Shown: piece after piece, positions 37,589 through 48,153 of the stretch | How positions within the stretch are numbered: position 1 is the first letter of the stretch | How the letters are laid out: each line of letters opens with the position of its first letter | Origin: Phenylobacterium sp. | GTDB taxonomy: Bacteria > Pseudomonadota > Alphaproteobacteria > Caulobacterales > Caulobacteraceae | Length of the DNA: 64,000 bases | Reading direction: 5' to 3' | Assembly: GCF_024508875.1 (NCBI RefSeq) | Contig: NZ_JANINU010000355.1 | Span: 1,027 to 65,026, forward strand | Notes under the pieces: model-generated | What the model was told of the DNA's origin: nothing | Database searches by the model: none | What the model saw: the letters and a program-made list of their open reading frames with translations, nothing else | Program-made: the position numbers and the translations under genes

Positions 37589-37730
37589 CCTTCGCTTCCC
37601 CCTGCCCGATGTCTCGCCCCGGACGCTGGCCGCGACCCTAGCACAGACGTTTCGTGGGTCACCCGACCTCGCGGCTATGGCGCGGTTCCGAACTGTCTAA
37701 TATGGCGGCGCTTCAGCGCCGGGGGATTCG

Positions 37731-38516
37731 ATGCTTCGCCTGTTCCTGTCGGTCGACATGGTCGGATCGACCGAGTTCAAGGCCCGTTTCACCGGCCAGG
37801 GCTCCGAGGGCTGGCTGGGCATCTTCCAGACCTTCTTCACCAGCTTCCCACTGATGGCTGCCGGCCAGATCGGCATCGAGTTCCTGGACGACGACGCCAC
37901 GCCGGCGATCGACGTCTGGAAGGTCATGGGCGACGAGGTGGTGTTCGTCTGCCAGCCGTCGGCTCCGGAGGAATTGACCTCGATCCTGATCGCGCTGCTG
38001 CGGACCATGCGCCTCTACGAGGAGCGACATTTCGAGAAGCTGCCCCTTCGGCTCAAGGGCACGGCCTGGCTGGCCGACTTCGAGGGTCAGAACATCCAGA
38101 TCGAGATCCCGGAGCTGTCCAGCGGGACGGGCGCGCACCTCGATTTCATTGGCCCCGACATCGACCTGGGCTTCAGGATCAGCAAGTTCGCCAAGCCCGG
38201 CAGTCTCGTGATCTCGCTCGACGTGCTGGAGATCGTCCTGGGCGCACGCAACGCGGACAGGGCGGCGCTTTACGTCATCGGGCGCGAGCCGTTGAAGGGC
38301 GTGATGTTCGGTCGGCCCTATCCGATCGTCTGGATGCGGGCGGCCGACGACGGCTTCTCTTTCCTGCCGTGGGAGGTGGAGCAGGACCCGCTGATGGCCC
38401 GGGCGATGAACATGTCGCCTGCCTCGCCAGAAGACCTGCGCCGCCTGATCGAGGACATGCGCCACTTCCTGCGCAAGATGCACGGTCGCGACCGTCCGCC
38501 GCTCAAGCTCGGATAG
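37731..38516 (+). CDS. Stand-alone class III nucleotide cyclase-like protein
   Basis: SVDMVGST (metal Asp 1), WKVMGDEV (Lys plus metal Asp 2), DFIGPDIDLGFRI (D..G..xN/D.xxR). Confidence 0.7.
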   Translation: MLRLFLSVDMVGSTEFKARFTGQGSEGWLGIFQTFFTSFPLMAAGQIGIEFLDDDATPAIDVWKVMGDEVVFVCQPSAPEELTSILIALLRTMRLYEERHFEKLPLRLKGTAWLADFEGQNIQIEIPELSSGTGAHLDFIGPDIDLGFRISKFAKPGSLVISLDVLEIVLGARNADRAALYVIGREPLKGVMFGRPYPIVWMRAADDGFSFLPWEVEQDPLMARAMNMSPASPEDLRRLIEDMRHFLRKMHGRDRPPLKLG

Positions 38517-38524
38517 CGGGCCGT

Positions 38525-40153
38525 TCAGCCCTCGTAGCGGACGACCAGGATGGCGATGTCGTCGGACTGCGGCGTGGCCCCGACAAATACCCTAACATCG
38601 CCGGCCAGCCCCTCGGCCAGGGCCCGAGCATCGGTCTCGGCGCGCGCCGTCGCCAGCGCGGTCTCGATGCGGCCGGTGGTGAACAGCTCGTCCTCGGCAT
38701 TGGCCGCCTCCGAGACTCCGTCGGTAAACAGGACCAGCGCATCGCCAGGGTTCAGCCTGAAGGTCGCGGCCGGGTAGGGCGCATCCTCGATCACCCCCAG
38801 GGCCATGCCCTTCAGTTTCGGCAGCCGCTCCACCTTGCCGTCGGCGCGCCGCAGGAACGGCGCCTCGTGGCCGCCGTCCGAGTACTCCACAGTCCCGGTT
38901 CGCAGGTCCAGGATTCCGCAGAAGGCGGTGACGAACATCTCCTGGGCGTTGTCGCGCGCCAGCTCGTTGTTCACCCGAAACATCACCTCGGCGACCGAGT
39001 TCGCCGAGAGCGCCGTCGCTTTGAAGAGTGTGGTCGTCATGGCCATGAACAGGGCGGCCGGCACGCCCTTGCCGGAGACGTCGCCGACGACGAAAAACAG
39101 CCGGTCTCGGTCGAGCAGCGCGTAGTCGTAGAGGTCGCCGCCGACATGCTTAGCCGACTCCAGCAGGGCGAACAGGTCGAGGTCGCGCCGTTCGGGGAAG
39201 GGCGGGAAGACCCGGGGCAGCATGCCCACCTGGATGTCGCGCGCGGCCGACAGCTCGCCCTCGACCCGTTCGCGGGCCGCGGTGGCCTGCTGCATCTCCA
39301 GCAGATAGCGCTGCAGGCGGGCGATCATTGCGGTCATGGCCTCGGCCAGGCTGCCGACCTCGTCGGGGCGTCTGCGGCTGATGGCGTTCATGGCCGCCAG
39401 CTCGCGCTCGTCGGGTTCGAAGTTGCGCTGGCCCATGTTGCGGGTGAATTCGGTGAGCCGCATCAGCGGTCCGACGATGCGGTCGACCAATAGCCAGCCG
39501 AGCGCCATCGATAGGGCGAACATCGCGGCGCCCACGCCCACCGACAGCTCCATGGCGTCGGTCAGGCGCTTCTTCACCATGGCCAAGTCGACGTCGGCCC
39601 CGACGACATAGGTGCGCTCGTCCACGCCGCGTACGGGCAGGTAGATCGAGCGAAACCGTCCGAAGCTGTCGCTGTACTCGTCGTAGCGCACCTGAAGGTC
39701 GTCGAAGCTCTTCTTCAGCGTGTCCGGCGCCGTGTCGTAGAGCGCGAAGAACTTCGTCTGGTTGCGGGTCTCGATCTCGCGTGGGGTCGCGCTGGTGGAG
39801 ACGGTGCGGATCTGATCGCCGAACCGCATGTAGGTGTAGACGTAGACCAGGTCCGAGCGGGCGGCGAAGCGCGACAGCCGGTACTGCAGCCGGTCGTACT
39901 CGGCCTCGGGGATCGAATCCGGACCGATGATGCGGGCGTGATACTCATCGGGGACGATCTCGTTCACCGCCAGGACCGCCGTCAGCAGGCGCCCGTCGAT
40001 GCCGGCCATGATCTCCTTGCGGTCGATGTTGTAGAGCATCGCCGAATAGGCGCTGGCCGAAATCAGGCTGAGCGCGAACAGCAGGAGCAGGAGCTGCGTC
40101 TTCAACCCGAACCGCCGGCGGCGCGCGGCCATCTCTGCGGCGGGCTCGGTCAT
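38525..40153 (-). CDS. Membrane sensor-HAMP-PP2C (SpoIIE/RsbU-type) phosphatase
   Basis: Two TMs flanking a Cache-like periplasmic domain, HAMP (DEVGSLA), intact PP2C motifs GGDLYD, GDVSGKG, FTDGV, DDIAIL. Confidence 0.93.
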   Translation of the reverse strand: MTEPAAEMAARRRRFGLKTQLLLLLFALSLISASAYSAMLYNIDRKEIMAGIDGRLLTAVLAVNEIVPDEYHARIIGPDSIPEAEYDRLQYRLSRFAARSDLVYVYTYMRFGDQIRTVSTSATPREIETRNQTKFFALYDTAPDTLKKSFDDLQVRYDEYSDSFGRFRSIYLPVRGVDERTYVVGADVDLAMVKKRLTDAMELSVGVGAAMFALSMALGWLLVDRIVGPLMRLTEFTRNMGQRNFEPDERELAAMNAISRRRPDEVGSLAEAMTAMIARLQRYLLEMQQATAARERVEGELSAARDIQVGMLPRVFPPFPERRDLDLFALLESAKHVGGDLYDYALLDRDRLFFVVGDVSGKGVPAALFMAMTTTLFKATALSANSVAEVMFRVNNELARDNAQEMFVTAFCGILDLRTGTVEYSDGGHEAPFLRRADGKVERLPKLKGMALGVIEDAPYPAATFRLNPGDALVLFTDGVSEAANAEDELFTTGRIETALATARAETDARALAEGLAGDVRVFVGATPQSDDIAILVVRYEG

Positions 40154-40265: not shown

Positions 40266-42899
40266 GTGCAGGTCTTCTTGAACCGCCTGTTCCGGGTCGA
40301 GCGCGGCGAGTGGCCGAAGCTCCTGCAGTTCGGCCTGTTCGGCCTGCTGCTGCAGACCGGCATGGGCATCGGGTTCGCCGCGGGGGACGCCGCTTTCCTC
40401 ACGCACGTGGGCTCCGACAAGCTGCCGGTGATCTTCCTCCTGACCCCGGCGGTGATGATCGTCTACACGGCGATCTTCTCGTATCTGATGGTCCGCTTCT
40501 CCATCGACCACGTCGTCGACGTGACGCTGGCGGCGCTGATCGGGGGAGGCGCCGTCCTCTGGGGCCTAATCCAGATCGGGTTGCCCGAGCCGTTCCAGAC
40601 GGGCCTGTACTACGTGCTGAAGCTGTACCTCGCCATGTGGTACATCGCGCTCTACTCGCTGTTCTGGAATTTCACCGACGCCTATTTCGACATCCAGGAC
40701 GCCAAGCGGCTGTTCCCGCTCTTCGCCGCCTTCTGCGCCCTGGGGACGACCGTCGGCGCGCTGATCGTCAGCGGGCTCGCCGCCGTCATACCGATGCACG
40801 GCTTCCTGCTGGTTTGGGCGGGTGTCGCCCTGGCCACCGCCCCGGTGGCCGTGATGCTGCGCCGGCGCTGGCAGCGGATCTCCGACAGCGACACCGACCT
40901 GGACGGCGAGGACTCGGGCGTGGTGAGCCAGCTCGTCCAGGTGGCCAAGGCGTTCCGCGGTTCGGGCTATGCGGTCGCCCTTGTGGCGACCCTCTTCGTC
41001 ACCCTGCTGATGACCAACCTGGCCGAGTATCAGTACTCGACCGTCCTGCAGAAAGGGCGCTCGGAAGCCGACCTCGCCAAGCTCTTCGGCGAGCTCTACG
41101 CCGGCGCCAGCGTGTTCAACCTCGTGATCTGCCTGTTCGTGTTCAACCGGCTGGTCACGCGGATCGGCGTGCGCAACGTGGCCCTGGTCCTGCCGCTGAC
41201 ATATTTCGCGGTCTTCGCCTACTTCTTCCTGGCGGGCGGCGCGCCGGCCGCCTTGGCGGCCTTCTTCGCCTATCACGGCGTCCTGACCTCGATCGAATAC
41301 AACAACCAGAACCTGCTGTTCAACGCGACGCCGTCGCAGGTGAAGCGGCCCTTCCGAACCGTGGTGGAGGGCCTGGCCGAGCCGCTGGCCAGCCTGCTTT
41401 CGGGCGCCTTCCTGCTGCTCGCGGCCAAGAACGCCGACATGCGCGAGCTGTCCGGCATCGGCCTGCTGCTGGGCGCGGCCCTGATCGCGGTGGTGATGGC
41501 CCTGCGCCATCTCTATCCGGCGGCGATGGAAGCCAACATGCGGCGCGGCTGGCTGAATTTCGGCGACCCCAGCCTGCACGCGCCGGCGTTCGATGCGGAG
41601 GCCGAGGCGGCCCTTCGCGGCCGGCTCGCCGGGGCGGACTCCGGCGCTGCCGCGGCGGCGCGCGCGCTCCTCAATCCCCCGTCCCGGCAGGTCTCCGCCC
41701 GTGAGGACGCGCCCGATGCGTCCGACGCTACCGAGGCGTTCGCCGCCAGGCTGGACGATCCTTCGCCCGCTGCGCGGCGCTCGGCGCTGCAGGCGCTGAC
41801 CAGTCTCGTGGGCCCGGGCGACATCGGCCTGGTGGAGCCCTTGGCGCGTATTCTGCCCGCGATGGATCGCGAGAGCCGCGGAACCATCCTGCAACTCCTT
41901 GGCGCCATCGGCGACGTGGAGGCGATCCCGCAGATCCTGACGGCCGCCGCGCGCCTCAGCCCGCGCGAGCTGCGCGCGGTCGAAGCCCTGCTGGTGGGCC
42001 TCGGCGAGGCGGCGATCCCGCGCCTCATGCAGGCGCTCACGAGCTATCAGACGCCCTACCGGGCGCGGGCCGTGGCGGCCCGGGCGCTGAGCACGCTCTC
42101 GCACGCCCAGTTCGTCTCCCAGCTCGACAAGCTGGTCCGGGAGGAGCTGGACGAGACCAGGCGCCGGCTGGCGGTCGCCGCACGCTTCGACCGGGAAGCC
42201 GGTCGCTCAGCGGCGCTCGGCCTTCTGGCGGAGGCCTATCGCCAACAGATCGGCGAGTCCGTGGACTTCACGCTGGAGTTGCTCGCCCTTGGCGGTCTGC
42301 TGCCCGACTTCGACCTGCTGATCGTCTCGCTGCACTCGGCCAACCCGAAGGTCCGCGGCAATGCTGTCGAGACCATCGCCAGCGGGGTCGGCCACGCGAC
42401 ATGGCGGCGGCTCGATCCCCTGATCCGGCGCTCGGGCGAGACCGCGCCGGCGCTGGGCGAACTGGCCCACCTGCTGAAGGCGGCGGTGGCGGGTGGGCGC
42501 GGCTTCGAGGCCGCCGCCGCGGCCCAGGCGCTGCGCGAGATGGTTCCGCCGGGAGAACTGGCCGCCGCCCTGCGCGACGGGCTTCGTCCCGGGATGGCGC
42601 CCATCTTCCGCGACAGTTTCGCCAGCCTGCTCGCGCTCGACTCCGGACGTCCGACGGTGGTCGACCTCGTGGCGGCGGTGCGTGCGAGCCCCGACCTCGC
42701 GGCTGCATCCATCGACGCCCAGGTGGCGCTCGCCGAGCGCGCCACGCCGGAACCGCCCGCCCGCCGTCCGGTGGAGCTGCGGCTGGCCGGACGTTCGTTC
42801 TGGCTCAGCCGGGCCGACGTGGACGAGGTGGCCGCCCGCTACGCCGACCTCGCGCTCAGCATGCTCAAGGCCAGGGACGATCGATCCTATGCGCTCTGA
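40266..42899 (+). CDS. NTT/TLC ATP-ADP translocase-like transporter fused to HEAT repeats
   Basis: About 12 TM N-terminal half (LFWNF..YFDIQDAKRLFPLF, RIGV), Ala/Leu-rich HEAT repeats (VRGNAVE), C-terminal cNMP-like remnant. Confidence 0.75.
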   Translation: MQVFLNRLFRVERGEWPKLLQFGLFGLLLQTGMGIGFAAGDAAFLTHVGSDKLPVIFLLTPAVMIVYTAIFSYLMVRFSIDHVVDVTLAALIGGGAVLWGLIQIGLPEPFQTGLYYVLKLYLAMWYIALYSLFWNFTDAYFDIQDAKRLFPLFAAFCALGTTVGALIVSGLAAVIPMHGFLLVWAGVALATAPVAVMLRRRWQRISDSDTDLDGEDSGVVSQLVQVAKAFRGSGYAVALVATLFVTLLMTNLAEYQYSTVLQKGRSEADLAKLFGELYAGASVFNLVICLFVFNRLVTRIGVRNVALVLPLTYFAVFAYFFLAGGAPAALAAFFAYHGVLTSIEYNNQNLLFNATPSQVKRPFRTVVEGLAEPLASLLSGAFLLLAAKNADMRELSGIGLLLGAALIAVVMALRHLYPAAMEANMRRGWLNFGDPSLHAPAFDAEAEAALRGRLAGADSGAAAAARALLNPPSRQVSAREDAPDASDATEAFAARLDDPSPAARRSALQALTSLVGPGDIGLVEPLARILPAMDRESRGTILQLLGAIGDVEAIPQILTAAARLSPRELRAVEALLVGLGEAAIPRLMQALTSYQTPYRARAVAARALSTLSHAQFVSQLDKLVREELDETRRRLAVAARFDREAGRSAALGLLAEAYRQQIGESVDFTLELLALGGLLPDFDLLIVSLHSANPKVRGNAVETIASGVGHATWRRLDPLIRRSGETAPALGELAHLLKAAVAGGRGFEAAAAAQALREMVPPGELAAALRDGLRPGMAPIFRDSFASLLALDSGRPTVVDLVAAVRASPDLAAASIDAQVALAERATPEPPARRPVELRLAGRSFWLSRADVDEVAARYADLALSMLKARDDRSYAL

Positions 42900-43977
42900 C
42901 GGCACGCCGATCAAAACCCTGCTGTGGCGGACGATCACTCCCGCCATCCTGGTGCTCGCCGTGGCCCTTGGCGCGCTGGTCTACAGCCGGCTGTACGAAA
43001 CGATCCTGGACGGCTTCTCGCGCAAGCTCATCGCCACAAGCGCGCTTACCGGAGCCCTCATCGACCCCGCCGATCACGACTTCCTGCTGCAGGCGGCGAT
43101 GGTCAAGGCGCCGGCCGACGCCGTCGAGGCCATGCCGCAGTACCGGCGCAACGTGGAGCCGATGCGGCGCATCCGCCGTGAACTGGGGCTGACCTACCTC
43201 TACTCGCAGGCGCTGGGCGGATTGAAGGACGTGGTCTACGTCTTGGACTCCACGGTCGGGGACGAACACTCTACCTTGGGGTCGGAGGACGAACTGACCC
43301 CCGAGACCCGGGCCGGCCTGCGGCGCACGATGGACGGCGGCCCGATATACGTGTCGCCGATCGAGTTCCAGGAGCACTGGGGCCTGCTGAAGACCGCCGC
43401 TGCGCCCATACGCGACCGCGCGGGGAAGATCGTGGCGACGGCCGGGGCCGACGTGAACATCTCGGTCATCGAGGTCGCCACCCAGAACGCCCTGTTCGCC
43501 AGCGCCCTGATCGGCGTGGCGTCGCTGGCGGCCTCGGCGTTCGTCACCTTCCTGATCGTGCGCTGGGTGGCGGCGCCGATTGAAGGCCTGAAGGCCGACG
43601 CCCTGCGCATCGCCGCGGGTGATCGCGCTCCGCCGGCGCGCCTCAAGGGCCCGCGGGAGGTCTCCCGGCTTCGCGACGACCTCGGCGAGTTGGCCACACA
43701 CCTGACGACGGCCATGCGCCAGGCGTGGAGCGATACGCTGGCTGCCGACCGCGTGCGAAACTCCGCGCGCCTGGAAACGGCGCTGCCGCCCGCCGTGCCG
43801 GTCAACTTTCCGGACGGCGCGGTTTGGAGCCCTCTCGACGACGGCCTTGAGGCGCGCCTGGAGCATCGGGCCATGGCGGACCTGGCGCGCCGCGTCGCCG
43901 CCGACCCGGCCCTTGCGAAGGCCTGGCGAGGTCTGGCGCTCGTCGTACACGGCGAGCTCACGGACGCGTCGGCATGA
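42889..43977 (+). CDS. Membrane sensor (Cache-like plus HAMP) without a recognisable output domain
   Basis: TM-periplasmic (LTYLY..WGLLKTAAAPIRD..AGADV)-TM-HAMP (REVSRL), then a short tail. Confidence 0.75.
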   Translation: MRSDGTPIKTLLWRTITPAILVLAVALGALVYSRLYETILDGFSRKLIATSALTGALIDPADHDFLLQAAMVKAPADAVEAMPQYRRNVEPMRRIRRELGLTYLYSQALGGLKDVVYVLDSTVGDEHSTLGSEDELTPETRAGLRRTMDGGPIYVSPIEFQEHWGLLKTAAAPIRDRAGKIVATAGADVNISVIEVATQNALFASALIGVASLAASAFVTFLIVRWVAAPIEGLKADALRIAAGDRAPPARLKGPREVSRLRDDLGELATHLTTAMRQAWSDTLAADRVRNSARLETALPPAVPVNFPDGAVWSPLDDGLEARLEHRAMADLARRVAADPALAKAWRGLALVVHGELTDASA

Positions 43978-44363
43978 TCGGCGTCGATGTCGTCCAGCGC
44001 CTGTTCGCCCTGCGCGAGGCCGGGCCCTTCCGCCGGCTCGATGACGCCGAGCTGCTGCTGATCGCCCGCCACGCGCGGCCGCGCGCCTATGGCCCCGGAA
44101 AGCTCGTGCTTCCCGCGGGGACGGTGGCCGAGGCGCTGTTCGTCACCCTGGCCGGACATGCTGAGACGGCGGGGAGCGCCGCGCCGGCGGTGTTCGATGC
44201 GCCGGGGTTGCTGTTTGGCCTCGCCGTACGGACCGACCACGTGGCGGGGCCCGACGGACTGGAGGCGCTGGTCATCGCAAAGCCGCACGTCTTCACCATC
44301 GCCCGGGAATGCCCCGAGTTCGTCGTCGGCCTGCGCGATCTGCTGGACGGGGCCGCCGGATGA
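43974..44363 (+). CDS. Stand-alone cyclic-nucleotide-binding (Crp-like) domain protein, degenerate
   Basis: LREAGPFRRLDDAELLLIA..YGPGKLV..G..LFV..G; ATGA overlaps on both sides. Confidence 0.7.
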   Translation: MIGVDVVQRLFALREAGPFRRLDDAELLLIARHARPRAYGPGKLVLPAGTVAEALFVTLAGHAETAGSAAPAVFDAPGLLFGLAVRTDHVAGPDGLEALVIAKPHVFTIARECPEFVVGLRDLLDGAAG

Positions 44364-45604
44364 GTATCCGTCGCACCTTCCTGCTGCTGATCGCGCCCCT
44401 GTTCCTGCTGTTGGCGGGTGTGAACGGGGCGCTGCTCTACATCTGGGAGCGGGCCGAGGCCGAACGGGGCCTCGCCAACCAGGCCATCGCCGCGGCGGTC
44501 ACGGTAGCGGCGTTCGCCGACGCCTCCGAAGACCTTGCGCGCGCCTTGGCCGATCCGGTCCGCGGCGCGGCGCTGAGCGATGCCGTTCGGCGGGTGAAGG
44601 GGCTACAGGGCCTTTACCTCGTCAGACCCGATGGCCGGACGTTACGGCTCGCCGGCGACCCGTCCCGCGACTGGCCAGGCCGCTTCGAGACGCCAAGGAC
44701 GCCGGCGGCGGCCGGCGTCAGAGCCGATTCCAAAGGTCTTCGGCGCGCGACTGGCCTGGCTCCGGTGAGGGGCGGGGGCTTCGTGATCGCCCAGATCGAC
44801 GCCGAGCCGCTGTTCGCCCAGGTGAAGGGTCTTCAGAGACTGGTGGCCGGACTTGTCGCGGCCGCGGGCCTCGTCGGCCTCGTCCTGGCGCTCGCGATCT
44901 CGCGGATCATCACGGGCGAGCTGGCGCGCAACAGCGGCGCGATCGCGGCCATCCGAGCCGATGGGTCGGCTCAGACCACGGGGCGCTTCGCGATCCGGGA
45001 GACCGGAGACCTGGCCCAGGCGGTCCGGCTCATGGCGACAGGTGTGGCCAGCCGCATCGCGCGAGGACGGCGCGAACTGGCCCGGCGCGATCGTGCGCGG
45101 GACGAAGCCGTCAGCGCCGCGGCCTACCGCGACGCGGCCTTCCCCGCGGAGGCGGCCGAGGCGGCGGGCGCCAGCGTCGCGATGCGCGTCATGGGCGGCG
45201 CTCCCCCAGGCGTATTCCATGCGCTGTCGCTGGTCGCGGGACGCGCGGCGGTGGTCGTCGGCGAGTGCGGCGGGGAAAGCCCCTCCGCCGCGCTGGCGTC
45301 GGCCCTGGCGGCCAGGCGCCTGTTCGAGGCGCGGCTGGCGGGCGAGGGCGAAGCCTTGATCGCGCAGGCGACCGCCGCGTTCGGGATCACCCGCCTCGCA
45401 TGGCGGGCGTGGGCTAGCGGCGATGCGCCTTCCGGATTGCTTTTGGTGATCGACGGCGACAAGGCGCAGCGCGCCGAAGTCTACGACGCCGCTGCGGCCC
45501 AGCTGGGGGCGGCGGCCGTCCTGGACGACCTGTCGACGCTGCTGGAGCCGGTGGGTGTCGCGGCGGCGATCCGGCCGCGGTCAGGCCAGCGCGGCGAGGG
45601 CTGA
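44360..45604 (+). CDS. Membrane sensor-HAMP protein with degenerate PP2C-like domain
   Basis: Two TMs, HAMP-like (IRETGDLA); AVVVGECGGESPSAALASA aligns by eye with FVVGDVSGKGVPAALFMA of the neighbouring phosphatase. Confidence 0.6.
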   Translation: MSIRRTFLLLIAPLFLLLAGVNGALLYIWERAEAERGLANQAIAAAVTVAAFADASEDLARALADPVRGAALSDAVRRVKGLQGLYLVRPDGRTLRLAGDPSRDWPGRFETPRTPAAAGVRADSKGLRRATGLAPVRGGGFVIAQIDAEPLFAQVKGLQRLVAGLVAAAGLVGLVLALAISRIITGELARNSGAIAAIRADGSAQTTGRFAIRETGDLAQAVRLMATGVASRIARGRRELARRDRARDEAVSAAAYRDAAFPAEAAEAAGASVAMRVMGGAPPGVFHALSLVAGRAAVVVGECGGESPSAALASALAARRLFEARLAGEGEALIAQATAAFGITRLAWRAWASGDAPSGLLLVIDGDKAQRAEVYDAAAAQLGAAAVLDDLSTLLEPVGVAAAIRPRSGQRGEG

Positions 45605-45913
45605 CTCCACGTCGAGCTCGATGGCGAAGATGCTGGTGAAGCCCGAGATGTCGAACACCTCCTGGACGGAGGCCGACAGGCCGGTCAGCACCAGTTTGTG
45701 GCCCTTGCCACGGGCGGCCTTGGCCCCGATCAGCAGCACGCGCAGCCCCGCAGAACTGACGTAGGGCACCTCCGCCAGGTCCAGGACCACCTTCTCGCTC
45801 GCCTGGACGCGCGGAGGCAGGACGGCCTCCAGCTCTCCGGCCGAACCGGAATCCAGCCGCCCGGACGCCGTGAGCAGGAGTACGCCGCCGCGGGTCTGTT
45901 CGTGGATCTGCAT
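45581..45913 (-). CDS. STAS anti-sigma-factor antagonist (RsbV/SpoIIAA-like)
   Basis: GRLD, VVLDLAEVPYVSSAGLRVL (phospho-Ser motif), VFDISGF. Confidence 0.93.
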   Translation of the reverse strand: MQIHEQTRGGVLLLTASGRLDSGSAGELEAVLPPRVQASEKVVLDLAEVPYVSSAGLRVLLIGAKAARGKGHKLVLTGLSASVQEVFDISGFTSIFAIELDVESALAALA

Positions 45914-46018: not shown

Positions 46019-46465
46019 ATGGAACCCGACTTCGCCCATACGCTGCCTCCCGGCGGCAAGGGCCCCTCCGTCCTGCTCGACACCCTGGAAGAGGAACTGG
46101 CCGGCCGCGGCGTGCCCATGGCGACGGTGAGTTCCGTCCTGCTGGCGGTGGACGAACTCGTCAGCAACGTGCGCAACCACGGCGGAGCGGATGCCTCGGT
46201 GGAGGTGGCTGGGCAAGTCACCGATGAGCAGGTCACCCTGACGATCACCGACGATGGACCCGCCTTCGATCCGCTGGCGGCGGAGGCTCCCGACACCACG
46301 CTGGGCGTGGATGAACGCGAGGTCGGCGGCCTGGGAATCCATCTCGTGCGCCGCATGATGGACCGGGTGGTCTACCGGCGCGTGGGCAACCATAACTGTT
46401 TGCAGTTTTCCAAGAGCTATGCGCCACCGTCGCCTTCCCGACAGAGGGCGGGCGGGACATCCTAG
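46019..46465 (+). CDS. Anti-sigma factor/Ser kinase (RsbW/SpoIIAB-like)
   Basis: DELVSNVRNHG N-box, DDGPAFDP, GGLGIHLV G-box. Confidence 0.92.
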   Translation: MEPDFAHTLPPGGKGPSVLLDTLEEELAGRGVPMATVSSVLLAVDELVSNVRNHGGADASVEVAGQVTDEQVTLTITDDGPAFDPLAAEAPDTTLGVDEREVGGLGIHLVRRMMDRVVYRRVGNHNCLQFSKSYAPPSPSRQRAGGTS

Positions 46466-46471
46466 GGCGAT

Positions 46472-46930
46472 ATGCCGACACCCAACGAATCGCAGGCCCG
46501 CGGCGCGCCGGATGAGGCCCTGGAAGTCTGTGACACGGACTCCGAGTACGGCCTTGGCGTCCGCACGCTGAGGGCGCGGCGCAAGGGCGAGGTGATCCAC
46601 CGGTTCACCGGCGTCGTCGGGCCGGAGCTGAAGCAGCACAGCCTGCAGGTCCAGCCGGGGCTGCATATCTCCGAGACCAGTATCATCGGGTTCTTGTCGC
46701 ATAGCTGCGACCCCGACTGCCGGCTCGACATGGAACGCTCGGAGCTTGTGGCGCTTCGCGACATCCCCGCCGGCGACCTGCTCACCATCGACTATGCTGA
46801 GACCGAGGACGTGCTGTTCCGGCAGTTCGCCTGCCACTGCGGCGCGCGGACCTGCCGCCACTGGATCACGGGCCGCCTCGAAGGGCCGAACGCGGAGGGG
46901 CGGGCCTACATCGCCCGGCCGGCGCCTTGA
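46472..46930 (+). CDS. SET-domain methyltransferase with post-SET Cys cluster
   Basis: GLGV, SHSCDPD (NHSCxPN variant), LTIDY, CHCGARTCR. Confidence 0.88.
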   Translation: MPTPNESQARGAPDEALEVCDTDSEYGLGVRTLRARRKGEVIHRFTGVVGPELKQHSLQVQPGLHISETSIIGFLSHSCDPDCRLDMERSELVALRDIPAGDLLTIDYAETEDVLFRQFACHCGARTCRHWITGRLEGPNAEGRAYIARPAP

Positions 46931-48153
46931 GCGGCCCGCAGCCCGCCGCCGCCTTCTGGTGGACCCGCGACGACCTCGGCTTCATCGAGGGCCGTCTGCA
47001 CCTGGGCGGGCGCGACCTCGGCGCCCTGGCCGCCGCGGTCGAAGGGCCGCTGCACGTGGTCAGCGAGGCGCGCGTCCACGCCAACCTCTCCCGACTGCGG
47101 GAGGCGCTGGCCTCCAGCGGCTGTCCCACGCGCGCCTATTACGCGATCAAGGCCAACCGGTTCGAGCCGCTGCTGCGGTCCATCGCCAGGACGAGCCGCT
47201 GGGGGGCGGATATCTGCTCGCCCAACGAATTGGATCGGGCCCTCGACTGCGGATTCGCCCCGGCCGACATCAGCTTCACCGGGACGGCGGTCGCCAATCG
47301 CGACCTGGAACGACTGCTCGCCGAGCCCGATCTGACCATCAACTGCGATTCCGTGGGCATGATCCGGCGCATCGGCGAGCGGGCCCCGGGCCGGGCGATC
47401 GGCGTGCGGGTCAATCCCGAGCGCGGCACGGGCTACGCTGGCGCCGAGAAGCTCACCTATGCGGGCGCCGCCGTAACCAAGTTCGGCATCTACCGCGACC
47501 AGTGGGCCGACGCCCTTGCGATGGCCCGGGCGCACGGCCTTTCCATTACAAGCCTGCATTTCCACGTGGGTTGCGGGTACCTGAGCCGGGAGTTGGACGC
47601 CTGGGAGGCGGCGGTGGCGTCGGCGGCGAGCTTCCTTGAGGCCTGCCCCGGGGTGCGGACGGTCAATGTCGGCGGTGGTTTGGGTGTCCCGCACCGCGAG
47701 GGCGACGTCCCGCTCGACCTCGCGGCCTGGAGCGCCGTTCTGCGGCGCCGGTTCGCGGGCCGCGGGGTGACGGTCGCGGCCGAGCCTGGGGAGTACATCG
47801 TCAAGGACGCCGGCGTCCTGCTGCTGCAGGTGGTGGACGTCGAGCGCAAGAAGGACGTGATGTTCGCCGGGCTGGACGGCGGCTTCAACCTCGCGCCCGA
47901 GCCCGCCTACTACGAGCTGCCTTGCGAGCCCGTGGCCTGTGCGCCCCGAAGCCTGGACACCTCGACGTGGCGACCGGTCAGCCTCGCCGGCAACATCAAC
48001 GAAGCGCTCGACGTCTGGGCGCATGGCAAGCTGATGCCTGAGCTGGCCGAGGGCGACCGCATCGCCCTGATCAACGCCGGCGCGTACGGCGCCTCTATGG
48101 CTTCGAACCACTGCATGCGGGGCGACTTCACCGAGATGCTGCTGCCGGCGTGA
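46927..48153 (+). CDS. Group IV PLP-dependent decarboxylase (LysA-like, atypical active site)
   Basis: YAIKAN, HFHVG, GGGLG, EPGE, GNINEALD, AGAYG; TTGA overlap with the SET gene. Confidence 0.85.
   Translation: MSGPQPAAAFWWTRDDLGFIEGRLHLGGRDLGALAAAVEGPLHVVSEARVHANLSRLREALASSGCPTRAYYAIKANRFEPLLRSIARTSRWGADICSPNELDRALDCGFAPADISFTGTAVANRDLERLLAEPDLTINCDSVGMIRRIGERAPGRAIGVRVNPERGTGYAGAEKLTYAGAAVTKFGIYRDQWADALAMARAHGLSITSLHFHVGCGYLSRELDAWEAAVASAASFLEACPGVRTVNVGGGLGVPHREGDVPLDLAAWSAVLRRRFAGRGVTVAAEPGEYIVKDAGVLLLQVVDVERKKDVMFAGLDGGFNLAPEPAYYELPCEPVACAPRSLDTSTWRPVSLAGNINEALDVWAHGKLMPELAEGDRIALINAGAYGASMASNHCMRGDFTEMLLPA

Follow-up and report, generated by a model that had tools for sequence, protein, structure and literature searches.

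In the SiaABCD system of Pseudomonas aeruginosa, a nucleotide cyclase is encoded together with a HAMP-PP2C phosphatase, a HATPase_c_2-type kinase and a small partner protein that can be phosphorylated; in its unphosphorylated form this partner, SiaC, binds and activates the cyclase, SiaD (PMC8457831, PMC7647112). A comparable arrangement, with a PP2C phosphatase, a HATPase_c_2 kinase and a phosphorylatable partner encoded together with a cyclase-like gene (P0001), was found in a stretch of 64,000 nucleotides of Phenylobacterium sp. DNA (NCBI RefSeq assembly GCF_024508875.1, contig NZ_JANINU010000355.1, positions 1,027 to 65,026 of the forward strand). This whole stretch is referred to as the window, and coordinates given without further specification are positions within it. 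The systems differ in the cyclase itself, as SiaABCD and HsbA-HsbD, in which a partner protein likewise acts on a cyclase, employ a GGDEF diguanylate cyclase, whereas P0001 has the predicted fold of a class III cyclase. Furthermore, SiaC is not a classical STAS protein, whereas the partner in the window is a canonical one, whose interaction with the cyclase is suggested by gene adjacency. The conserved linkage of P0001-like genes to genes for a PP2C phosphatase, an RsbW-like kinase and a STAS protein is the strongest signal that emerged from our analysis; it was absent from an earlier description of the window made from the sequence alone (hereafter the original prediction).

Three other described groups are relevant for comparison. 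DUF2652 (Rv2561-type) is a soluble, stand-alone and remote cyclase-like family with a residue other than Asn at the transition-state position, and some of its members have neighbours with a cyclic-nucleotide-binding (CNB) domain (PMC4886424). P0001 resembles these proteins in being soluble, stand-alone, divergent and recognisable only by remote homology, and in having a non-Asn residue. The DUF2652 proteins differ in that they have His or no residue at the Asn position and K/E or E/K pairs, and no linkage to a partner switch has been reported for them. The PycC proteins of Pycsar are likewise class III-fold cyclases outside classical cyclic AMP (cAMP) signaling; P0001 is unlike them in lacking an adjacent transmembrane (TM)/TIR effector and in having kept the purine-type Lys/Asp pair. 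Finally, the NTT-HEAT(-cNBD) proteins, a family of unknown function, were described by Major et al. (2017), who speculated that they are regulated by cyclase-made cAMP (PMC5381601). A search of open-access texts yielded two-hybrid uses of adenylate cyclase, work on SiaABCD and the DUF2652 paper, and no paper on the P0001 family or on a class III-fold cyclase controlled by a partner switch was found in it.

The gene around which the analysis was centred is the following:

37731-38516, plus strand: cyclase-like gene P0001, 261 aa; domain at residues 1-205, clade-specific helical tail at 206-261; catalytic positions D9, K64, D68, E69, D138, D145 (the Asn site), R149 and K189

The P0001 frame runs from ATG to TAG over 261 stop-free codons, has a GC content at third codon positions of 90% (against a GC content of 69% for the window) and is preceded, 5 nt 5' of the ATG, by a Shine-Dalgarno-like run GGGGGA. 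The motif set noted from the sequence is real: all of the motifs that had been quoted are present in the translation, which confirms both metal-binding Asp residues, the Lys/Asp pair and the Arg. More specifically, SVDMVGST holds D9 (codon 37755-37757), WKVMGDE (WK-x2-GDE) holds K64 and D68, LDFIG holds D138, and LKG, which was not on the earlier list, holds K189. The spacings (K-x3-D and D-x6-(N/D)-x3-R) equal those of canonical class III cyclases. At the place where class III cyclases have N-xxx-R, P0001 reads D-LGF-R (D145, codon 38163-38165; R149, codon 38175-38177), and this point of the original prediction was corroborated by two independent alignments. A HMMER profile alignment to the cyclase domain of Rv1900c aligned D145 with the Asn/His site and R149 with the Arg, and an hhalign alignment to the four canonical cyclases of the same genome, which have DY-x-x-G-D-x-V-N-x-A-x-R (D-x6-N-x3-R) at the matching place, again put D145 on the Asn position. 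The proposed absence of sensor and TM domains was borne out as well, since P0001 has no TM segment (maximum 19-residue Kyte-Doolittle value 1.39) and a further domain was not found in Pfam.

No match of P0001 to a Pfam, NCBIfam or PADLOC model was accepted at E<=10; a match to SitI3 (E 0.14) was dismissed as noise. The gathering threshold of the Pfam class III cyclase model, PF00211, was not reached by P0001, and only 2 of 60 relatives reached that model (E 0.011). A phmmer search of P0001 against the PDB likewise gave insignificant matches only, the top one being a cyclase. The assignment was therefore made on basis of the predicted structure. A first AlphaFold2 model, built from 28 close homologues, had a predicted local distance difference test score (pLDDT) of 80.6 with residues 121-160 uncertain, and a second one, built from 39 sequences down to 29% identity, had a pLDDT of 93.8 and a predicted template-modelling (TM) score of 0.92; both gave the same answer with respect to the fold. 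In a Foldseek search of the PDB the top 50 matches were all catalytic domains of class III adenylate or guanylate cyclases (AC/GC), with E-values to 5e-11, target-normalised TM-scores to 0.81 and a root-mean-square deviation of 3.2-3.8 Å over about 205 columns. They included CyaC, CyaB, Ma1120, Rv1900c, Rv1264, Cya2, RhGC, soluble GC and mammalian AC; the uridylate cyclase structure 8jsz was among the weaker matches of the first model, and a search of a viral structure library again returned cyclase-domain proteins. The order of the elements in the model (beta1-alpha1-alpha2-beta2-beta3-alpha3-beta4-beta5-alpha4-beta6-alpha5-beta7-beta8) is that of the cyclase-homology domain, and the helix that bears D143, D145 and R149 (142-153 in the second model) corresponds to cyclase alpha4. 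Additions to the domain are a beta4-beta5 arm that is about 9 residues longer and the 55-residue helical tail (206-261).

Given these predictions, P0001 almost certainly has a class III cyclase fold and is a member of an unnamed family. The original prediction, which called P0001 a class III cyclase and named structure prediction as a way to refute it, thus stood at the level of the fold; it did not at the level of the PF00211 model, which gives no match at E<=10. P0001 shares with the class III domains (PF00211; CyaC of Spirulina, Ma1120, Rv1900c) the predicted fold (target TM-scores of 0.6-0.81), the order and spacing of the two metal Asp residues, the Lys...Asp pair, the Arg and the terminal Lys of the beta7-beta8 hairpin, and the GST phosphate loop. 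It is unlike them in the invariant Asp that replaces the transition-state Asn on alpha4, in having GDE for GDA/GDG/GDC, in the invariant K17, N121 and G-F before the Arg, in the longer beta4-beta5 arm and in the C-terminal tail. The nearest precedent for a residue other than Asn at this site is the His of Rv1900c, which was seen in the alignment with P0001, and Rv1900c works with this His. Several other identities were considered and rejected: a GGDEF protein (no GGDEF match in Pfam, and the best folds are class III), DUF2652 (PF10851; no Pfam family at E<=10), a member of Pycsar (no PycC match in PADLOC, and neighbours that are PP2C and ATP-grasp genes) and a CBASS/CD-NTase.

The family to which P0001 belongs is large. 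We found 248 close relatives in Phenylobacterium and Sphingomonadales, all named 'hypothetical protein', and an exhaustive phmmer scan of 1.84 billion cluster representatives (50% identity) recovered at least 1,656 clusters with an E-value limit of 1e-3, a number that dropped to 925 with a limit of 1e-10. Conservation was analyzed in 135 aligned full-length representatives with mutual identities of no more than 50%. In this set G67, D68, G141, D145, G147, F148 and R149 are each present in 135/135, as are K/R64 and D/E138, and D9 is found in 131/131 non-gap positions. E69 is present in 133 of the representatives, N121 in 134, K17 in 131, K/R109 in 132 and K/R189 in 128. Considering this invariance among such divergent sequences, the residue pattern of P0001 is far beyond chance. 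As judged from the alignment, the Asp for Asn, the GDE, an additional Lys behind the phosphate loop, the Asn of the longer arm and G-F ahead of the Arg are fixed hallmarks of the family. The change from Asn to Asp is thus not a local one but an invariant feature of a large and separate family, and P0001 is best explained as a member of a large and unnamed family that is sister to the canonical class III cyclases. Moreover, the fact that the metal ligands and the Arg are invariant at this depth favors catalysis over a decayed site, and the conserved residues make it likely that P0001 is catalytically active. A nucleotide-related fusion found in the family is that to a Nudix domain (3.3e-5). One metagenomic protein of 521 aa (P0131), which groups with P0001, has a weak C-terminal match to an HD-type 3',5'-cyclic-nucleotide phosphodiesterase (E 0.0018); if this match is real, the protein would be a writer-eraser fusion.

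The genes that connect P0001 to a partner switch are listed below:

38525-40153, minus strand: membrane sensor phosphatase with two TM segments, HAMP and PP2C/SpoIIE (SpoIIE 1.3e-51, HAMP; SiaA-like 5.7e-13 in NCBIfam)
45581-45913, minus strand: STAS protein of the anti-sigma-antagonist type, 110 aa (Pfam STAS 5e-17; TIGR00377 2.3e-18)
46019-46465, plus strand: RsbW-like serine kinase/anti-sigma-type protein, HATPase_c_2 (Pfam 8.1e-22; NCBIfam RsbA/RsbW)

The phosphatase gene is convergent with P0001, with 8 bp between the stop codons; its frame is open to 40420 and the start at 40153 was picked on basis of orthologues of 542-545 aa. The functional motifs are kept in all three proteins: the metal motifs of the phosphatase are intact, the kinase has the N, G1 and G2 boxes, and the STAS protein bears the phosphorylatable-Ser motif YVSSAGL, which in the form YVSSAGLRVLL is common to the STAS proteins encoded next to the cyclase elsewhere. 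The window STAS is 42-43% identical to such cyclase-adjacent STAS proteins of other lineages and matches them better than any other protein of its genome does, by 19 orders of magnitude (4e-23 vs 3e-4). Likewise, the window kinase is the best own-genome match to, and an orthologue of, the cyclase-adjacent kinase of another locus, L080 (2e-18 vs 3e-7). Based on these comparisons, the STAS and RsbW-like proteins of the window are the unique orthologues of the cyclase-adjacent ones elsewhere.

To tally the linkage, 83 loci were inspected over a span of 10 kb with a tblastn synteny table and hidden Markov models built from verified genes; the locus search, which yielded 80 loci, was biased toward close relatives. 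Within 10 kb of the cyclase gene, a PP2C gene is present in 66 loci, a STAS gene in 61 and an RsbW-like kinase gene in 49, and in about 50 loci the phosphatase gene directly adjoins the cyclase gene. The whole block occurs in about 50 loci of Phenylobacterium and Sphingomonadales. The gene order of the window (cyclase-like; convergent HAMP-PP2C; MFS/HEAT of ~878 aa; HAMP; 128 aa; ~410 aa; STAS; HATPase_c_2; SET; decarboxylase) is found again in a Phenylobacterium chromosome and in Novosphingobium mathurense, and RefSeq holds the identical order on an 850-kb plasmid of Sphingomonas paeninsulae. In Lysobacterales, where the cyclase is 38-41% identical, the PP2C, HAMP, 129-aa, 431-aa and MFS/HEAT genes lie within 10 kb in a rearranged module, on the other strand and in another order. 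The more distant loci (Stellaceae, Bauldia, Acidimicrobiia, unclassified Alpha- and Gammaproteobacteria and others) display the orders PP2C-RsbW-STAS-CYC, RsbW-STAS-CYC, STAS-CYC, CYC-RsbW-STAS-PP2C and CYC-RsbW, in which CYC denotes the cyclase gene. Pfam confirmed their 110-aa open reading frames as STAS (E 1e-19 to 1e-21) and one of the kinases as HATPase_c_2 (7e-28). The STAS gene is adjacent to the cyclase gene and co-directional with it, within 700 bp, in about 20 of the 30 distant loci (33-54% cyclase identity). The ATP-grasp/transglutaminase operon upstream of P0001 is common only within Phenylobacterium and is therefore not considered part of the system.

The conserved adjacency of the STAS and kinase genes puts the cyclase-like protein in the slot that is taken by the sigma factor in RsbU/V/W-type operons, and P0001 is probably under the control of the partner switch. 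The same operon position, taken together with the missing catalytic Asn, could also be read as a sign that P0001 is a pseudo-enzyme, which would bind nucleoside triphosphate (NTP) and metal without turnover; its role would be that of a partner sequestered by the RsbW-like kinase, or of an adaptor that senses NTP. Strict invariance of both metal Asp residues, Arg149 and K/R189, as found in at least 135 divergent clusters, is expected for catalysis and not for binding alone, and we regard such a role as very improbable.

Between the phosphatase gene and the STAS gene lies a second group of genes on the plus strand, and a third one follows the kinase gene:

40266-42899, plus strand: membrane protein of 877 aa, NTT/MFS-like domain with 12 TM segments followed by HEAT repeats (HEAT_2 5.5e-9, MFS_1 1.1e-4)
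42889-43977, plus strand: membrane protein of 362 aa, Cache-like region and HAMP (weak Pfam matches, HAMP 0.0011 and dCache 0.15; synteny)
43974-44363, plus strand: p129, 129 aa, stand-alone CNB-like domain (profile match; degenerate phosphate-binding cassette)
44360-45604, plus strand: p431, membrane protein of 414 aa with two TM segments (no Pfam or NCBIfam match; conserved in synteny)
46472-48153, plus strand: SET-domain protein and LysA-like decarboxylase paralogue (at the far end of the cluster, conserved in Phenylobacterium and Sphingomonadales)

The first four genes overlap by 11 nt (NTT-HEAT and HAMP genes), 4 nt (HAMP gene and p129) and 4 nt (p129 and p431), which suggests translational coupling of 40266-45604 in a single operon. 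In Sphingomonadales and Phenylobacterium this module is again found with the cyclase, as it is in rearranged form in Lysobacterales, so that the co-occurrence with NTT-HEAT genes foreseen in the original prediction is borne out by the synteny table in two proteobacterial classes. As in the NTT-HEAT(-cNBD) family (PMC5381601), an NTT/MFS-like protein with HEAT repeats is encoded in one operon with a CNB-type gene. The window differs in that the TLC match of the 877-aa protein is sub-threshold (0.046), in that a HAMP gene separates the NTT-HEAT and CNB genes, in the degenerate CNB cassette and in the co-encoded, dedicated non-canonical cyclase and partner switch. PDB searches with the C-terminal 317 aa and the N-terminal 445 aa of the NTT-HEAT protein gave nothing useful, and a second CNB domain within it is unsupported by them. 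The C-terminal stretch of p431 (GGAPPGVF...VVVGECGGES...AAL) resembles a PP2C/SpoIIE core in which the metal Asp is replaced; p431 may be a pseudo-phosphatase, a suggestion that has no library match behind it. The SET protein and the LysA-like paralogue may be part of the same system. In one Lysobacterales locus (L070) a LysA-like gene adjoins the cyclase gene.

The CNB-like protein p129 deserves closer attention, as the original prediction had the cyclase supply cyclic nucleotide-binding domains encoded 2-6 kb away. One CNB-like gene is present, 5.5 kb downstream of P0001, so that this point of the original prediction is partly right; it encodes the only CNB-like domain found on the contig, and its cassette is degenerate. 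A profile of 31 p129 orthologues matches the CNB domains of PKG/PKA (4e-18) and MlotiK1 (5e-6) in the PDB, 12 of the 31 weakly match PF00027, and one is labelled 'Crp/Fnr family' in RefSeq; window p129 itself has no Pfam match. PF00027 was not found on the contig, even at E<=10, against 13 occurrences elsewhere in the genome, and a search of the neighbouring genes for the cassette pattern GE...R[ST]A found none. In the p129 alignment the Gly-Glu of the cassette is Asp-Ala, the Arg-Thr-Ala position is variable, and the conserved Glu and Arg are gone; the usual contacts to the phosphate are therefore missing, which makes canonical cAMP/cGMP binding doubtful. The gene is nevertheless conserved with the cluster in Alpha- and Gammaproteobacteria.

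These neighbours bear on an alternative explanation in the line of the original prediction, namely that P0001 is an unregulated, stand-alone and homodimeric adenylate or other nucleoside monophosphate cyclase that feeds canonical cyclic nucleotide to nearby binding domains, the partner-switch genes being unrelated neighbours. K64 and D138 form the pair that specifies adenine, the other catalytic residues are all present, and a CNB-like gene is only 5.5 kb away. In addition, P0001 has no fused sensor and has an intergenic region of its own:

37589-37730, no strand assigned: intergenic region of 142 bp between P0001 and the divergent CP-ATP-grasp operon; promoter presumed here

The promoter of P0001 presumably lies in this region, although a promoter scan upstream of P0001 did not find a sigma-70 consensus. 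Nevertheless, the adjacency to STAS persists over Alpha- and Gammaproteobacteria, Acidimicrobiia and others despite rearrangements, the window STAS and kinase are specific orthologues, four canonical cyclases and 13 canonical CNB domains are already present in other parts of the genome, and the cassette of p129 is degenerate. An unregulated cyclase of this kind is therefore quite improbable.

The family is divided over two clades, as became clear from a FastTree tree of 162 sequences and 208 domain columns (midpoint root; representatives shorter than 200 aa and most close homologues left out). P0001 groups with all sequences for which a partner-switch context was available in a single 51-tip clade (support 0.992; median length 260 aa); for the other 111 tips the median length is 322 aa. 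The clade of P0001 is distinct from the clade in which the phage sequence placed in the tree resides. The long clade includes proteins of Leptospira phage LE1 and of Leptospira plasmids, as well as gp43 of Clostridioides difficile phage phiCDHM19, with counterparts in phiCD27, phiC2 and CDKM9. The gp43 protein of phiCDHM19 (gp44-gp43 region, L087:3327-5410) has 528 aa, with the cyclase-like domain fused to Nudix, and its gene is located in the lysogeny module, between the lysis genes and the integrase. The overlapping gene before it, which is that of a CapP-like M78 peptidase, scores as CapP (3.6e-25) and as a phage metalloprotease. The gene of a 317-aa member of the long clade (L084:9435-10954) also overlaps the gene upstream of it, a Peptidase_M78 gene, in this case by a single base; the region is prophage-rich and holds transposases, an N6/N4 methylase and Bro-N/ANT genes. 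The phage-borne long clade looks like conflict or lysogeny biology, and the phage cyclase-Nudix gene looks like a DNA-damage-regulated conflict or lysogeny gene.

The distribution of the family is sparse and patchy. A family match was found in 8 of 301 evenly drawn alphaproteobacterial genomes, and an orthologue of P0001 in 2 of 24 other species of the same genus. The genome itself carries a second family member outside the window (contig C345:38-319, minus strand), which is partial, being cut by the contig end, and 36% identical over residues 2-96. In four of the 24 congeners, and in one species from a different genus of the order, only a more distant relative with a longer frame is present, like this second copy. 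Copies of the gene that are 75-84% identical occur on contigs of a Rhodocyclaceae (1.3 kb) and a Chloroflexi (3.5 kb) metagenome-assembled genome; as these taxon labels are out of line with all other close relatives, the contigs are probably mis-binned. Considering the patchy distribution and the megaplasmid copy of S. paeninsulae, the cluster is an accessory, horizontally mobile signaling island.

The same two observations could be taken to mean that P0001 is an anti-phage or mobile-element conflict gene, like the sister clade. P0001 matches phage families of unknown function (phrog_18024, E 4.7e-34; phrog_6174, E 2.6e-9), and relatives reside in temperate phages of C. difficile and Leptospira beside CapP-like peptidases. 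The separation of its clade from the phage clade, the lack of a PADLOC match and the nature of the neighbours, which are membrane sensors and partner-switch genes and not effectors, peptidases or mobile-element genes, make this scarcely credible for P0001 itself. The phage and CapP-type contexts with Nudix fusions, in which unusual nucleotide signals are common, also relate to another possibility, namely that the fold is retained and the chemistry is different. Asp145 and Glu69, the latter recalling GG[DE]EF, would then have re-tooled the site for something else than 3',5'-cyclisation, for example intermolecular nucleotidyl transfer to a linear or cyclic oligonucleotide, other regiochemistry or a three-metal mechanism. 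The invariance of D145 and E69 in a family that keeps the remaining cyclase machinery agrees with this, as does the remodelled cassette of the co-conserved CNB-like protein. However, the phosphate loop (GST), the K/D pair and the best structural matches all correspond to mononucleotide cyclases and not to GGDEF proteins, and Rv1900c manages with His at the Asn site. We consider a different chemistry unlikely.

Based on the above, we favor, with some reserve, a composite reading in which P0001 is a catalytically competent cyclase-like enzyme that forms the output of a partner switch. In such a scheme, ATP would be bound via the Lys64/Asp138 pair, with two metal ions on Asp9 and Asp68; ATP is the probable substrate since the Lys/Asp pair specifies adenine in canonical enzymes. 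The reaction would yield a nucleotide second messenger, which may be cAMP or something non-canonical; plain cAMP is conceivable as the product, though somewhat doubtful. As one chain carries all residues, the class III family rule would have the active site across a homodimer with two symmetric sites. Together, Asp145 and the additional Glu next to the metal Asp could coordinate another metal ion, serve as a base or alter the acceptor. The activity is probably not constitutive: the membrane HAMP-PP2C phosphatase would dephosphorylate the STAS protein on an envelope or periplasmic cue, the RsbW-like kinase would re-phosphorylate it, and one form of the STAS protein, or the kinase, would bind the cyclase and switch it on or off, analogous to the action of SiaC on the diguanylate cyclase SiaD. 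Gene adjacency favors STAS as the binder, and the clade-specific C-terminal helical tail is a candidate docking site. The products of the NTT-HEAT/HAMP/p129/p431 operon are candidate downstream receptors or effectors, with p129 as the candidate reader.

Several points weigh against this composite reading. At the sequence level the homology is weak (E 0.014 to Rv1900c), the Pfam, NCBIfam and PADLOC models fail to recognise P0001, and the hhalign alignment with the four canonical cyclases, although in the expected register, had a probability of only 2.6%, for which reason we relied on the fold search; the evidence for the fold in turn is a single-chain structure prediction. The Asn, which normally holds the ribose ring oxygen during in-line attack, is needed for normal class III catalysis, as was established by mutagenesis of mammalian AC and Rv1625c, and consequently the chemistry of P0001 may differ or the enzyme may be slow. 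The window STAS and kinase genes are 7 kb from the cyclase gene, beyond another operon, so that their linkage in the window rests on orthology and synteny. The gene neighbourhood is silent on the binding partners and on whether the cyclase is located up- or downstream of the switch, and p129, having lost the cassette Glu and Arg, may not bind the cyclase product.

A bolder extension is that the messenger is other than 3',5'-cAMP/cGMP, is produced under the control of STAS in the 261-aa clade, is read by a co-evolved p129 with its remodelled cassette and controls the NTT-HEAT proteins, the phage clade using the same chemistry in lysogeny or defence. We put this forward as a speculation that is more likely to be wrong than right by a fair distance; if true, this would be a new pathway of second-messenger signaling whose writer, regulator and reader are all encoded together.

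The family of P0001 is large and unannotated, extends over several phyla and temperate phages, and is labelled 'hypothetical' in every source. Its fixed change at a residue that is thought to be essential for cyclisation points to either a tolerated alternative mechanism or a new product. In the literature searched, the outputs of partner switches are sigma factors, a few other proteins and GGDEF cyclases, and a class III-fold output is possibly a new kind. Finally, a cluster in which an NTT-HEAT protein is encoded together with a dedicated cyclase-like enzyme and a CNB-like protein provides a handle, tractable in culturable and non-pathogenic sphingomonads, on the NTT-HEAT(-cNBD) proteins, which are conserved from cyanobacteria to Chlamydia and oomycetes (PMC5381601).

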